Source: Escherichia coli
GTDB taxonomy: Bacteria > Pseudomonadota > Gammaproteobacteria > Enterobacterales > Enterobacteriaceae
DNA: 64,000 bases
Assembly (NCBI RefSeq): GCF_044647545.1
Contig: NZ_CP172818.1
Reading direction: 5' to 3' (one strand)
In this document: in pieces, positions 20,436-62,111 of the stretch
Layout of the letters: each line of letters begins with the position of its first letter
How positions within the stretch are numbered: position 1 is the stretch's first letter
Program-made: the position numbers and the translations under genes
The notes under the pieces: generated by a model
The model's input: the letters and a program-made list of their open reading frames with translations, nothing else
Database searches by the model: none
Told to the model about the DNA's origin: nothing

Positions 20436-21138
20436 GATGCCAGCGCAGCAAGTTTGCCATCGCAAAGAGATATTTTTCGCTGGCTTCGTCGGAGGAGATG
20501 GGCGGAAACTCTGCGGTGATGCAATGCAGGTTGAGATCCGCACACCAACTGCCGAAAGAGCCAGGCGTTTCATAACCGACGCTGGTTACCAGTGGCAATT
20601 CAAACGCCTGGGCCAGCCATTCACCTAATTCGCTGTGTCTGGGGTCTTCAATACAGGCCAGTGGATCGTGGAATGAGACCACCCAGGCAGGTTGAATGCG
20701 GTGTATAAGCTGGCACAGCGCCTGAGTTTCAGGTTCGGAGCCAGGTTTGTCACCTGTCAGTAAAACGACATCACGTTCTTCAGCGGTGCTGTTCCAGCGA
20801 TAAACTGTTTCACCTTCCTTCCAGTTCGCTGCCGGAAAGTTTCGGTTTAAATCCACACCATTAGCATTGGCCCGTAACCCTAACTGGCAGCCGTCAGGAT
20901 TCACACACAGCACCACATGATGGCGGCGCAAAGACGGTGTCAAAGTCCGCAGAGCACAGGAGAGCGTGACGATCGAAGAGTTTTCATCACCGTGAGTGCC
21001 AGCCAGAATCAAACCACTTTCGTGACTGGCGGCTGGGGCCGGAAACCAGATCAAAGGCGCGCCCAATAATGAACGTCCGTAATGTTCTGTACCGGGCGGA
21101 AATGCGCCGCGTTCGGCGCGTGGGCGAGTTACGGTCAT
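20410..21138 (-). CDS. mpaA: murein peptide amidase A (gamma-D-Glu-Dap amidase, M14-like)
   Basis: ORF 20410-21198; likely start MTVTRPRAERG at 21138; zinc carboxypeptidase-like HGDEN motif. Confidence 0.85.
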   Translation of the reverse strand: MTVTRPRAERGAFPPGTEHYGRSLLGAPLIWFPAPAASHESGLILAGTHGDENSSIVTLSCALRTLTPSLRRHHVVLCVNPDGCQLGLRANANGVDLNRNFPAANWKEGETVYRWNSTAEERDVVLLTGDKPGSEPETQALCQLIHRIQPAWVVSFHDPLACIEDPRHSELGEWLAQAFELPLVTSVGYETPGSFGSWCADLNLHCITAEFPPISSDEASEKYLFAMANLLRWHPKDAIRPL

Positions 21139-37901: not shown

Positions 37902-38837
37902 TTATTTCACTTCAACCACATTCAGTCGTAACTCATCCAACTGATTTTCATCTTCTTCAGGCTGCCAACCCGCCGGTTGTAGAGGGATCTCTTCGCGATC
38001 AAACGCCAGATCACCCCCGTTAACCACTTCAGAACCGTGGGTAATGCCTTTGAAATCGAACAGGTTGGTATCGCACAGATGCGACGGCACCACATTCTGC
38101 ATCGCGCTGAACATCGTCTCGATACGCCCCGGATAACGTTTATCCCAGTCACGCAACATGTCAGCAATCACCTGACGTTGCAGGTTAGGCTGTGAACCGC
38201 ACAGGTTGCACGGAATAATCGGGAACGCTTTTGCATCGGCAAAGCGCTGAATATCTTTCTCGCGGCAGTAGGCCAGCGGACGAATAACGATATGTTTGCC
38301 ATCATCGCTCATCAGTTTCGGAGGCATACCTTTCATCTTGCCGCCGTAGAACATATTTAAGAACAACGTTTGCAGGATATCGTCACGATGGTGACCCAGC
38401 GCGATCTTCGTCGCTCCCAGTTCCGTTGCGGTACGGTAAAGAATTCCGCGACGAAGACGAGAACACAGTGAGCAAGTGGTTTTGCCCTCCGGAATCTTCT
38501 CTTTCACGATACCGTAAGTGTTCTCTTCCACAATCTTGTACTCAACGCCCAGTTTTTCAAGATACTCGGGCAGAACGTGTTCCGGGAAGCCCGGTTGTTT
38601 TTGATCGAGGTTGACAGCCACCAGCGAAAAATTGATTGGCGCGCTTTGCTGCAAATTGCGCAGAATCTCCAGCATGGTATAGCTGTCTTTACCCCCTGAG
38701 AGGCAAACCATGATGCGATCGCCTTCTTCAATCATATTGAAGTCAGCAATGGCTTCGCCCACATTACGACGCAGACGTTTTTGTAATTTGTTCAGGTTGT
38801 ATTGTTCTTTCTTACTAATTTCTTGATTTTCTTGCAT
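37902..38837 (-). CDS. ttcA: tRNA 2-thiocytidine synthase TtcA
   Basis: 311 aa ORF with PP-loop SGGKDS motif and paired CxxC motifs; its 5' end overlaps the prophage attachment repeat. Confidence 0.85.
38788..38830. repeat. prophage attachment-site direct repeat (attL copy)
   Basis: ttgttcaggttgtattgttctttcttactaatttcttgatttt, identical to 61887-61929. Confidence 0.75.
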
Positions 38838-38888
38838 TATTTCAGTTCTCTGGTACTAAATGGGGCAAATTGGGGGCAAACTTTGCAA

Positions 38889-40119
38889 CTACGATAACCG
38901 CGCATTCAACATGGCTATCTGTTCGTCGTTCATGTCATCAATCCACATACCGTAAATTTCATACACCATCTGCGCAGTTTCATGCCCCATTTGGCTGGCT
39001 ATAAATGCCGGGTTCGCTCCTGCCGTCAACAGCCAGCAGGCAAAAGTATGCCGCGTATGGTACGGATTACGGCGGCGAATACCAGCACGTTTTACTGCTG
39101 CATTCCACCTTGCCCCCAAACTGCTTACCGAGTAATAAGGTTTTTGTTTTCCGTTACACACCCTGGGCATGAAAACAAAATGCAGTTTTTGCTTTTCGGT
39201 TCTGCATACTGCCGATAATAAAAGGTGACGACTTTTGCGATGATGCCCGGTCAGTTTGTATTGCTCCTTCAGTGCTTCAAGAGCAGGCTGCAGTAGTGTT
39301 ACTGTTCGGATCCCGGCATTTGTTTTTGGGGGACCGAACATATCGAGCCCTCGTCAGGTTTCTTCTGACATTCACTATTCCCTTTTCGAGATCCACATCC
39401 TCCCACGCCAGAGCTGCCAGTTCCCCGTGACGAAGTCCTGAGTAAACGGCAAAGTTCCACAAGTTCTCGCTATCTCCTTTTTCACTTTCCATTAATGCAT
39501 TGAATTCTGTTTTAGATAACGGATCAGGCTTTATTCTGTTCGCTGTAATTTTTTTACTCCTTCAAATGGTTTGGTTGATATAAATCCGACTGATACGCAA
39601 AACGCAACAGCGAACAGAGCAAGGCAATATCGTATCAACTGTGCGCACGGTTCTTCCTTTTTTGTTGGATCTTGGATTATCCAGGTAAAGCGTTTCTCCA
39701 TGCAGCAGTTCATTCCGGTAGTTTAAGATATCGCTATAACGAATATGTGATATCGGGGTACTTTCACAAATTATTATTCTGAGTGTTTTTAATTGTGATT
39801 TCGTTTTCTTCATTGTGTTTGTTGTTAACTCTGTCTCTTTAATTTTTGTCCAGATATCACAAAGCTCTCCGAACGTTTTTATGACTCTCGTTGTCACCAT
39901 TTTTGCCCCAGTGCTGGACTGGGGAAAACGTCTTAAATACTCAAATTCACCGGAGTTTATTTCATGAACTATCAGCGCTCTTAAATTTCCGGCCTTTTTA
40001 ATATTACTGTTTGTAATCTCCCAGCCTTTTAATGTTTCCCGACATCGTTTTCCTCGAAACATGAACCAGATGCGAATGTATCTACCTCTAATCTCGACAC
40101 CTGTTGGTAATTTAGACAT
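38889..40119 (-). pseudogene. intR: prophage tyrosine integrase, reading frame broken by at least two frameshifts
   Basis: Three consecutive minus-strand ORF fragments (39562-40119, 39277-39492, 38889-39341) together resemble one tyrosine recombinase (MSKLPTGVEIRGRYIRIWF...; ...LRHGELAALAWEDVD...; ...RHTFACWLLTAGANPAFIASQMGH...EIYGMW). Confidence 0.75.
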
Positions 40120-59340: not shown

Positions 59341-59915
59341 TGGCATTCAGAATGAGTGAACAATCACGTACCGTAAAAATTTATAACCTGCTGGCCGGAA
59401 CTAATGAGTTTATTGGTGAAGGTGACGCATATATTCCACCTCATACAGGGCTGCCAGCTAATTCTACAGATATCGCCCCACCGGAAATTCCTGCTGGCTT
59501 TGTGGCAGTTTTTAACAGTGAAAATGAATCGTGGAATATTGTTGAAGACCATCGTGGTAAAACGGTCTATGACGTGGCGTCGGGGGACGCATTGTTTATT
59601 TCTGAACTCGGACCGCTACCAGAGAATGTCACCTGGTTGTCGCCAGCAGGGGAGTATCAGAAGTGGGACGGCGTATCCTGGGTGAATGATGAGGAAGCAG
59701 AAAAACTGTTTCGGATACGGGAAGCGGAAGAAAGAAAAAGCAACCTGATGCAGGTAGCCAGTGAGCATATTGCGCCGCTTCAGGATGCTGCAGATCTGGA
59801 AATTGCAACGGAGGAAGAAACCCCGTTGCTGGAAGCATGGAAAAAGTATCGGGTATTGCTGAACCGTGTTGATACGTCAACTGCACAGGATATTGAATGG
59901 CCAGCACTGCCGTAG
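59340..59915 (+). CDS. tfaR: tail fibre assembly protein
   Basis: 191 aa ORF whose ATG overlaps the stfR stop (TAATG); Tfa family. Confidence 0.85.
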
Positions 59916-60603: not shown

Positions 60604-60919
60604 AGTGAGACTCTATACGAAATTGGTGTTCATATCATAATGCATCTCAGAAAATAATTATGATTATTTTTGTGCATATTTGTATGTACACGTTCGAAAA
60701 TAAACGAATGCGTATGCAACCCCGTAATTTTGGTGAGACCCAAAATCGATTTTGTGAAAAAAGGCTTTAACTCGGTTTGTTTTTCGAGTTCCGGGCGGAC
60801 TCAAGGAAGAAGAATAGTGTTGCGTGTTATTTTAACCAGATTTCAAGTTGTTTGGTCGTGGAAAAGTGGAGCAAAATGTTGTTAAAGTGGAAAAATGATA
60901 AAAAAGTAAGTTTATTATA

Positions 60920-61153
60920 TTACATTTTACCATTTAAATTTTGGTTGTCTTTAAGAACTGATATCGCTGTTTGTAATAATTCTTTGTTATCCAGCCATGA
61001 TTTTTTCTTTATGTTTCCTTCAATGTAATCAAGCAATGTTCTGGTATTGATAGGTCTTCCCTGTTTTGCTACTTCCACTACAGCATCCCCTAGGATAATT
61101 CTTACTTCAGGAAGCTGCGCAGGGAACCACTTTAGGGTGTCTTTTGATTTCAT
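60920..61153 (-). CDS. ynaE: prophage protein YnaE (YdfK-like)
   Basis: ORF 60920-61258; likely 77-aa product MKSKDTLKWFPAQLPEVRIILGDAVVEVAKQGRPINTRTLL... Confidence 0.65.
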   Translation of the reverse strand: MKSKDTLKWFPAQLPEVRIILGDAVVEVAKQGRPINTRTLLDYIEGNIKKKSWLDNKELLQTAISVLKDNQNLNGKM

Positions 61154-61882
61154 GAAGATATTCCTTAAAATATTATTGATTTTCATTGCGATATTGTATG
61201 TCTGATTCAGGATATGTTGACTTATACATCGGTTTTGTCTGGTTATTGGATATGCCAATCCCTAATTTTATTAGAGCATGACTAAAAATGCTGAATATGA
61301 TAAGGAGCGAAGTGATTATCAGTATGCTGTTCATATAGCCTCGAATTAGTAATGTGTTATATATGATATAGTTGACAATTTTTATCCTGGGTGTTCTTAA
61401 AGTTCGTAGATAAACATTGTCGTTTCAGGTATACAGGAATGCTAACAGGTGGCGGCAAAAATCAGGCGGTTTATGGCGCAAGCTGAAGTGGCAACTGCAA
61501 ACTATCTTATGCAGAGACTCTACACGGATTGGGTTTAAAAGTATACATAGATAACAGTTTTTATCTGAAGAAGAAAAATATCAAGGTGATATAGCCTATA
61601 TGCCTTTGATGCGGAGGAATGAATGTGATGGGAGTGATGTATCTGAATAGTTGAAAAACCGCAGTCACGTCGTATGCAAGAACGTGCTGCGGTTGGTTTG
61701 ACTTTGATTGAGACGTTTTGGAATTTTTTTCGGTGGCAAAAATGGGGCAAAACGCTGCAAAAGGGGCAAAAAAGGGGCAAAAAAAGAGTGGATTATCGTA
61801 GCTTATTGTTGTCGCTGATGATATTTAACACATTGAAAAATAAGTAAAATACTTATGAGTCAGAGAGTTGTGATTTTTGCCC

Positions 61883-61936
61883 TTACTTGTTCAGGTTGTA
61901 TTGTTCTTTCTTACTAATTTCTTGATTTTGCGACAT
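61883..61936 (-). pseudogene. ttcC: displaced N-terminal fragment of ttcA (17 codons)
   Basis: Minus-strand ATG at 61934-61936 encodes [17 protein letters not shown] then stop; parallels ttcA N-terminus [17 protein letters not shown]. Confidence 0.5.
61887..61929. repeat. prophage attachment-site direct repeat (attR copy)
   Basis: Identical 43-bp copy of 38788-38830. Confidence 0.75.
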
Positions 61937-62111
61937 TTAAAAGCGACTCAATTCGTTATATGGCATCAGAAGAGTATGCGTCATGCCGGAACGCCCAGCA
62001 TAAGAAATCTGATATAAAAACTGTGGCGTGTATGGTACGGATTAGAGGGGAAAATGTCAGCACATTTGCGAAATGAATCAAAAAGCCCGCAGCAATGTGC
62101 GGGCGTTAGTG

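Follow-up and report, generated by a model that had tools for sequence, protein, structure and literature searches.

The right end of the Rac prophage in an Escherichia coli genome: an accessory module joined to an attachment-site arm with putative integrase arm-type repeats

The segment at positions 60604-61886 of a 64,000-nucleotide stretch of the Escherichia coli contig NZ_CP172818.1 (assembly GCF_044647545.1; the whole stretch is called the window below) is, with a probability of roughly three in four, the accessory module at the right end of the Rac prophage, fused with an arm of the prophage attachment site, and as such a composite of element kinds that are already known. Its boundaries are the pinR start codon (60603, minus strand) and, at 61886, the onset of the sequence identity between the left and right attachment sites (attL and attR). 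A preliminary description of the window had placed an AT-rich and largely non-coding segment between pinR and attR, and this holds in all three respects: the GC content is 35.6%, compared with 48.9% for the whole window; only 0.16% of the 1283-bp stretches in the window are as AT-rich; and the genes ynaE (234 bp) and ynaM (114 bp in K-12, 162 bp here) account for 27-31% of the segment, which leaves about 70% non-coding. The region is an ordinary, documented one and holds no new cargo, and previous annotation or publications on E. coli K-12 cover its genes, its attachment site, its leader transcript and the effect of Rho on that transcript. Only the reading of short repeats in the attachment-site arms as binding sites of the Rac integrase IntR looks undescribed, and it is an annotation of a routine kind.

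The composite nature of the segment is seen when it is compared with other genomes. The Rac prophage of K-12 is 99.8% identical, with three differences, at 60762, 61002 and about 61241; from 61242 to 61886 the K-12 sequence is present without change, and the leader, the hairpin and the attachment-site arm described below are all identical. An exact match to the whole segment was found in none of 5426 complete E. coli genomes, while the module as such is carried by over 3000 E. coli genomes and by viable phages. Positions 60604-61696 are 98-99% identical to Qin-type prophage ends (ydfK/ynfT) in more than 2700 genomes, including the Qin end of K-12 itself (ynfT/ynfQ-ydfK-pinQ), and to viable phages such as Tritos, mEp460_ev081, Kati and Turner; the identity to the type represented by phage 2H10 is 86-94%. 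The Qin-type and 2H10-type ends share the gene order, the leader and the hairpin with Rac and differ from it in everything beyond the hairpin, including the attachment-site arm, the integration site and the integrase. The homology to Qin-type prophages and phages breaks at 61696, and the last 190 bp of the segment are specific to prophages integrated at ttcA.

The Rac arm is present in 1528 of the 5426 genomes and the junction of the K-12 type in 870 of these 1528. Its left neighbour is pin-ydfK-ynaM in the K-12 type, sitABCD in strain 144 and tail-fibre genes only in Rac-SA53 and F6326-C1. In strain 144, the sitABCD iron/manganese transporter genes lie directly to the left of a Rac-type attR arm, and homology to the window starts at the first GGCAAAA repeat. 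The preliminary description had expected variable cargo or regulatory RNAs at a prophage end of this kind, and it was right, in ways that were already published: the cargo beside one and the same arm varies, and transcripts other than ynaE are on record in the form of a leader RNA and a Rho termination region found by Term-seq (PMC7815308) and an Hfq-bound RNA named 'ttcC-ynaE' (PMC4152368). Transcripts and variable cargo, the two things whose absence that description had named as telling against it, were hence both found.

The features of the attachment site are as follows.

61697-61885, no strand assigned: Rac-specific attR arm, the int-distal arm of the attachment site, 100% identical to K-12.
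61733-61785, plus strand: five direct repeats of the GGGGCAAA(A) type with phased A tracts, starting at 61733, 61744, 61754, 61763 and 61774.
38862-38880, plus strand: two GGGGCAAA copies in the attL (int-proximal) arm, starting at 38862 and 38873, 11 bp apart and in the same orientation.
61886-61928, no strand assigned: core identity of attR and attL (TTGTTCAGGTTGTAT...), running into the ttcC fragment, from the attL/attR comparison.

Excision of Rac has been described (PMC4632033), and the crossover falls within the first ~26 bp of the core identity; the core is annotated in Rac-SA53. The identity between attL and attR extends over 43 bp in this strain (38789-38831 and 61886-61928). In K-12, the second half of attL differs from it at several bases (…CTTTGTAATTTGTTG… instead of …CTTACTAATTTCTTG… in the window), so that the N-terminus of ttcA here matches the ttcC version.

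The repeats of both arms are most likely arm-type sites for the N-terminal domain of IntR, a putative assignment that is drawn from sequence. The array had been noted in the preliminary description, which considered it in connection with regulatory RNA or cargo; its presence is beyond chance, and it belongs to the recombination site and not to an RNA or a cargo gene. With 1.9 occurrences expected in the window, the 8-mer GGGGCAAA has seven, and its five plus-strand copies all fall in one or other of the attachment-site arms. The attR array consists of three exact and two near copies. Distances from the core are 100-153 bp for the attR sites and 60-78 bp for those of attL; as is typical of arm sites, one short motif recurs on either side, no farther than about 150 bp from the core. 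The integrase has the corresponding domain: the N-terminus of IntR matches the Pfam family PF12167 (Arm-DNA-bind_2) over residues 5-69 with an expectation value (E) of 8.9e-27. When six prophage ends integrated at ttcA were aligned, the array was the most conserved block of the arm and the homology common to prophages with different neighbours started at its first repeat, and the two attL copies are conserved in five attL arms. The centres of the A tracts in the attR array are 10-11.5 bp apart; hence, the DNA of the array should be intrinsically bent, and the phased tracts would help to wrap the recombination complex. No description of arm-type sites for Rac was found in the literature searched, so far as that search went, and the repeats offer a concrete and testable map of putative IntR arm sites for a prophage whose excision has been studied by experiment; GCCGCAAA, an altered form of GGGGCAAA, is named as the control sequence.

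The layout resembles that of the lambda and HK97 attachment sites (P1, P2 and P'1-3), in which a tyrosine integrase with an N-terminal arm-binding domain is likewise combined with a short motif in both arms within ~150 bp of the core, with AT-rich, bendable arm DNA and with a terminator beyond the int-distal arm. It differs in that GGGGCAAA is unrelated to the lambda consensus and in that the five int-distal and two int-proximal copies of Rac all have one orientation, whereas the two best lambda-type matches in HK97 are on opposite strands. The arm domain of IntR belongs to Arm-DNA-bind_2, which is likened here to the lambda-type N-domain as a similarity and not as an established equivalence of families.

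It is unlikely, in comparison, that the array is not an integrase site at all and is either a binding site of the excisionase XisR or a piece of curved, AT-rich DNA that recruits H-NS or Fis. The Xis sites of lambda are also tandem direct repeats in the int-distal arm, and the five phased A tracts predict a bend. In electrophoretic mobility shift assays, XisR shifted one attR probe and did not shift the AttM probe (PMC4632033). Mapping of the primers showed that the shifted probe corresponds to 61717-62010 and includes the array; however, the unshifted AttM probe corresponds to 61596-61886 and holds the whole array as well, which argues against the repeats as XisR sites. Binding of H-NS has been reported in the spacer between ynaE and uspF (PMC3946193). 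The occurrence of the motif twice in the attL arm is what would be expected of integrase arm sites and not of excisionase sites. A structural, bending role of the array is compatible with its assignment to IntR and not opposed to it.

Some further occurrences of these sequences were recorded. The attR arm of strain JX21CE33 contains six GGGGCAAAA units, one more than the five found here, so the copy number varies. An exact GGGGCAAAA is present inside the 5' coding part of intR (39901-39909, minus strand), on the strand opposite to the arm copies, and could be due to chance or could be an autoregulatory site. The 9-mer TTATCGTAG of the attR arm (61793-61801) recurs in the attL arm (38889-38897) as the reverse complement, CTACGATAA, and in either arm the last GGGGCAAA copy is 8-11 bp to its left; the estimated probability of such an inverted pair arising by chance is about 0.2, and no role is claimed for it.

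The arm is separated from the accessory module by a hairpin.

61655-61696, minus strand: GC-rich hairpin CCGCAG..CTGCGG followed by UUUUU, a probable intrinsic terminator that bounds the ynaM-ynaE module on its outer side, assigned from the fold and from the 3' ends of the Qin copy.

On the minus strand, it has a stem of 13 pairs with a folding energy of -20 kcal/mol (z = -4.5), and the five U residues follow directly; a simple terminator scan missed it, as the loop exceeds the limit of 8 set in that scan. Term-seq of K-12 placed 3' ends of the Qin paralogue at 1632571 and 1632574 (PMC7815308), which map directly past the U tract. Termination in the ynaM-sense direction is therefore shown for the Qin copy, and by analogy with this near-identical sequence the Rac hairpin would also terminate transcription. 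The hairpin and its U tract would stop transcription that enters from the side of the attachment site, and in the excised, circular phage, transcription that leaves intR through attP would meet this terminator before any other.

The hairpin is also a mosaic junction, since the homology to Qin-type prophages and phages ends there, and it is found well beyond Rac. The 42-nucleotide hairpin is present in HK97 (20943-20983, between tfa and the annotated sib), HK106, mEp460 and others. A pattern scan of IMG/VR viral contigs gave at least 120 loci, in which the hairpin opens a conserved non-coding block of ~125 nucleotides, the sequence upstream being unrelated between contigs; the invariance of the loop among these loci was imposed by the search pattern and carries no weight. 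A pair of the outer stem covaries in 65 distinct variants (A-U in 44, G-C in 11 and G.U in 4). At the viral loci, the hairpin lies mostly between convergent genes, with pin or tfa upstream and dinI or int downstream. In the 125-nucleotide block, a second stem (GGCTGG/CCAGCC) follows the hairpin, and Rac keeps the first 42 nucleotides only. A small open reading frame (ORF) that runs across the hairpin (…MQERAAVGW) was considered and rejected, for variants carry indels of one nucleotide, the stop codon is not kept and the upstream ATGs are in different frames.

Like other intrinsic terminators between convergent genes, the hairpin has a GC-rich stem between an A tract and a T tract, and the Qin 3' ends fall after the U tract. 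It differs from them in opening the longer conserved block and in the fact that a clear U tract is confined to the pin-ydfK-ynaM type, many variants having none on either strand, so that termination may be neither the sole function of the hairpin nor the one it first had. The most fitting description is that of a probable terminator which at the same time marks a recurrent mosaic joint, where lambdoid phages swap cargo and integration modules.

The position of the hairpin invites a comparison with sib/tI of lambda, the retroregulator that destabilizes the int messenger only when int and the hairpin are contiguous, as in the excised phage. The Rac hairpin is located int-distally, 190-233 bp past the core; on the minus strand, no other strong hairpin comes between the two, and the layout is that of the lambda-type phage HK97. 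Yet HK97 has a separate, annotated sib (21042-21091) that is nearer to the core than its copy of the hairpin, and the hairpin is common to phages with different integrases and often comes without a U tract. A sib-like role for intR is therefore possible but unsupported, and it is judged improbable that the hairpin is the Rac counterpart of sib/tI.

Inside the hairpin, the module consists of two genes and their common leader, all transcribed from the minus strand.

61540-61569, minus strand: predicted sigma-70 promoter of the leader, TTCAGA-18-TATACT, from a consensus scan.
61335-61533, minus strand: ynaM-ynaE leader, with published 3' ends at 61480 and 61468 and a predicted 5' end at about 61533.
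61173-61334 (K-12 equivalent 61222-61334), minus strand: the small-protein gene ynaM, annotated in RefSeq, YnaM/YnfT family.
60920-61153, minus strand: ynaE (ydfK-type), 77 amino acids, annotated as a cold shock protein, for which the ORF and RefSeq agree.

Term-seq of K-12 identified dominant minus-strand 3' ends at 1434540 and 1434552, with scores of 45,000-76,000, in a neighbourhood where the uspF terminator has scores of 34,000-348,000 (PMC7815308, supplement 1). By exact sequence match, these two ends correspond to 61468 and 61480 of the window. A region of Rho-dependent termination was reported at 1434347 (Rho score 23.5, p 9e-12; PMC7815308, supplement 2), which corresponds to 61275, inside ynaM; the minus strand of the leader and ynaM has a C/G ratio of 1.57, as expected for the loading of Rho. 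The equivalent end of the Qin leader is at 1632744 (PMC7815308). The Qin sequence at the leader end differs from that of Rac at diagnostic bases, so the ends of the two copies have not been mis-assigned, and in the K-12 tables the Term-seq score of the Rac leader RNA is about 20-70 times that of the Qin one. Co-immunoprecipitation with Hfq recovered both the 'ttcC-ynaE' RNA and a 'ydfK 5' UTR' RNA, the latter label standing for the 5' untranslated region (PMC4152368).

These data suggest the following course of events, which is conditional in its parts. A promoter near 61540-61569 would start a leader of about 200 nucleotides, followed by ynaM, which encodes a small membrane-type protein, and then by ynaE; the sigma-70-like site (61569 to 61540) would put the start near 61533. 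The promoter candidate overlaps a 6-bp inverted repeat (AGATAA/TTATCT), and the 2H10/PhiR63_1 type has kept it. At 37 °C, most transcripts would end early, either as the short leader RNA or through the strong Rho-dependent termination inside ynaM, and a stable, Hfq-bound leader fragment would be left behind. Premature termination, probably together with H-NS on the AT-rich DNA, would keep the operon low at 37 °C, and it is plausible that cold relieves it. The arrangement resembles the Rho-terminated 5' leaders of E. coli (Adams et al. 2021) in its orphan leader 3' end, in the strong bicyclomycin-sensitive region just downstream and in the excess of C over G. It differs from them in that the region includes the translated small ORF ynaM, which was unannotated when the data were classified.

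Several points weigh against this account of the segment. Both the 5' end of the leader and its promoter are predictions from sequence, and the SMRT-Cappable-seq supplements contain no entry for the leader locus. The leader 3' ends lack the signature of a hairpin followed by U residues and could be processing products instead of termination sites. The predicted fold of the leader is no better than that of shuffled sequence (z = 0.21), and in simple folding the accessibility of the ribosome-binding site is equal at 37 and 15 °C, so that the step of cold relief is conjecture. At the hairpin, the K-12 Term-seq data place no dominant 3' end at the Rac copy and only do so at the Qin copy. As for the attachment site, the binding of IntR to the GGGGCAAA repeats is inferred, and the arms compared are 79-100% identical, at which level conservation is weak evidence of function. 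Finally, intR (38889-40119, minus strand) is split in this strain into three ORFs of 150, 71 and 185 amino acids. Compared with the K-12 gene, which is intact and encodes 411 amino acids, it has seven indels and many substitutions, the region being 98.5% identical to K-12 over 2.2 kb. With an intR broken by seven indels, the arm sites would be relics here, and the Rac prophage of this strain, which resembles K-12 but is distinct from it, probably cannot excise with its own integrase.

Both Hfq-bound RNAs had been put forward as riboswitch-like in an earlier study (Raghavan et al. 2011, as cited in PMC4152368), and the possibility arises that the leader of ynaM-ynaE is structured and regulates in cis, as a riboswitch or as a thermosensor like that of cspA. 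A short leader RNA does accumulate, and the gene downstream is induced by cold. Against this, the leader matched no Rfam family at E up to 5, the cspA thermoregulator included, and the null results for fold energy and temperature-dependent accessibility given above bear directly on it. Moreover, part of the supposed untranslated leader is the coding sequence of ynaM, and the leader upstream of about 61385 is missing in the ynaM-ynaE copy of a Salmonella phage. Homologues of the leader are of three sequence types only (99%, 94% and 79% identity), too few and too similar for an analysis of covariation, and the type with 79% identity is without most of the leader. A structured leader is accordingly considered decidedly unlikely. 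As the "riboswitch-like" leader of 2011 partly overlaps a real small-protein gene and gives no structural signal, it is better viewed as a Rho-attenuated leader.

Another proposal would make the short RNA a trans-acting, Hfq-dependent small RNA derived from the 5' end of the operon. The RNA does co-immunoprecipitate with Hfq, it is abundant at 37 °C by the Term-seq scores given above beside those of the uspF terminator, and there are two near-identical copies, in Rac and in Qin. However, the usual Hfq-binding module is a terminator hairpin with a U tail, which the 3' ends of this RNA do not have; no target or phenotype is known, and the leader is limited to phages of the E. coli type. This proposal is likewise regarded as unlikely. 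In a wider formulation, the RNA of ~55-65 nucleotides from the Rac and Qin ends would be either a regulator in its own right or the product of a cold-responsive Rho attenuator that gates YnaM and YnaE, and the 125-nucleotide block would, separately, be an unrecognised structured element of lambdoid phages where tail-fibre genes and attachment site join; this remains doubtful, if somewhat less so.

The preliminary description had drawn attention to a promoter-like string at about 61373, the corresponding feature being the following.

61372-61403, plus strand: promoter-like string with a perfect -35 element (TTGACA at 61372-61377) and a weak -10 element.

The -35 hexamer is indeed there and matches at six of six positions, but the -10 hexamer, TCTTAA, matches at three of six and lacks A2 and T6, the two bases that count most. 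For this reason, the string is absent from the 12 sites listed by a scan for the sigma-70 consensus. As the source of a transcript, it also has the wrong orientation: the string reads along the plus strand, and every mapped 3' end belongs to the minus strand. The start of ynaM, for which the other strand is the coding one, is about 40 nucleotides downstream of the string. Together with a second arm, the string makes up an imperfect inverted repeat (~61375-61421), which appears as a stem in folds of the leader.

It could be argued that the plus-strand TTGACA at 61372 belongs to a promoter for a regulatory RNA or a cargo transcript that is missing from the annotation and that would run toward attR, in antisense to the leader of ynaM, as far as the hairpin. 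Apart from the perfect -35 hexamer, it may be noted that TTGACA is kept on the plus strand in the 79%-identical Salmonella phage copy, that the hairpin is stable on this strand as well (-23 kcal/mol), with a moderately U-rich stretch behind it, and that positions 61554-61691 of the plus strand give a weak Rfam match to the Shigella small RNA family CssrB. The poor -10 element and the K-12 Term-seq tables, in which no plus-strand 3' ends are reported in the region, speak against such a transcript, which is thought very unlikely to exist. Membership in CssrB (RF02799) was rejected: the match has 28 bits against a gathering threshold of 76, is confined to the hairpin, on which it mainly rests, and a short 5' stretch, and was not recovered at E up to 0.01 in five related loci, among them a Qin-type copy.

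The gene ynaM had been overlooked in the preliminary description, which saw no convincing ORF apart from ynaE and no coding system; the gene is annotated in RefSeq, and its product matches Pfam PF23676 with 76.1 bits (cut-off 27) and NCBIfam NF041477 with 46.8 bits (cut-off 35) and so belongs to the YnaM/YnfT family. The YnaM protein of 37 amino acids has been detected through chromosomal epitope tagging (PMC6001520; bioRxiv 10.1101/511675), and the ynaM-ynaE pair is conserved in the Salmonella phage 118970_sal3. Alignment with K-12 shows a deletion of 1 bp at about 61241 in the window (GGG to GG on the plus strand), which swaps the last six residues of YnaM, altering the K-12 C-terminus ...NNPDKTDV, and extends the ORF from 37 to 53 amino acids. 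The deletion was found in none of the 5426 complete E. coli genomes and could be a real variant or a sequencing error in a homopolymer.

YnaE matches phrog_2718 and gave no match in sequence searches of Pfam, NCBIfam and PDB. Together with ydfK, ynaE is co-regulated with the csp cold-shock genes (PMC7430671; PMC7406224). Its AlphaFold model is helical and of moderate confidence (predicted local distance difference test score, pLDDT, 73). The best match of the model in the PDB is YmgB (2oxl_A), with template modelling (TM) scores of 0.66/0.80, a root mean square deviation of 2.3 Å and E of 0.077, which is a tentative hint that YnaE may have the Hha-like fold of YmgB/AriR. YmgB/AriR (2oxl), a small protein of the Hha-like kind, regulates biofilm formation and acid resistance. 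In the K-12 Term-seq data obtained at 37 °C, no dominant 3' end is reported downstream of ynaE. A Fur-box-like cluster of 17.1 bits was predicted by information theory at the old start codons of ynaE and ydfK, which corresponds to about 61165-61186 of the window (PMC2189734).

The remaining part of the segment lies between ynaE and pinR.

60604-60919, minus strand: spacer between ynaE and pinR, comprising the 3' untranslated region of ynaE and the promoter region of pinR.
60690-60663, minus strand: predicted sigma-70 site of pinR, TGTACA-16-AATAAT, from a promoter scan.

The same hexamers were given to pinR by genomic SELEX (systematic evolution of ligands by exponential enrichment) with RpoD, which, along with H-NS, has reported sites in the spacers of this region (PMC3946193). 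Outside the segment, the 3' end of tfaR (59683-59881, plus strand) matches the Rfam family IS009 (RF02111) with 205 bits against a threshold of 117, and the same match is found in the Qin-type prophage of strain 14EC017 and in phage 2H10.

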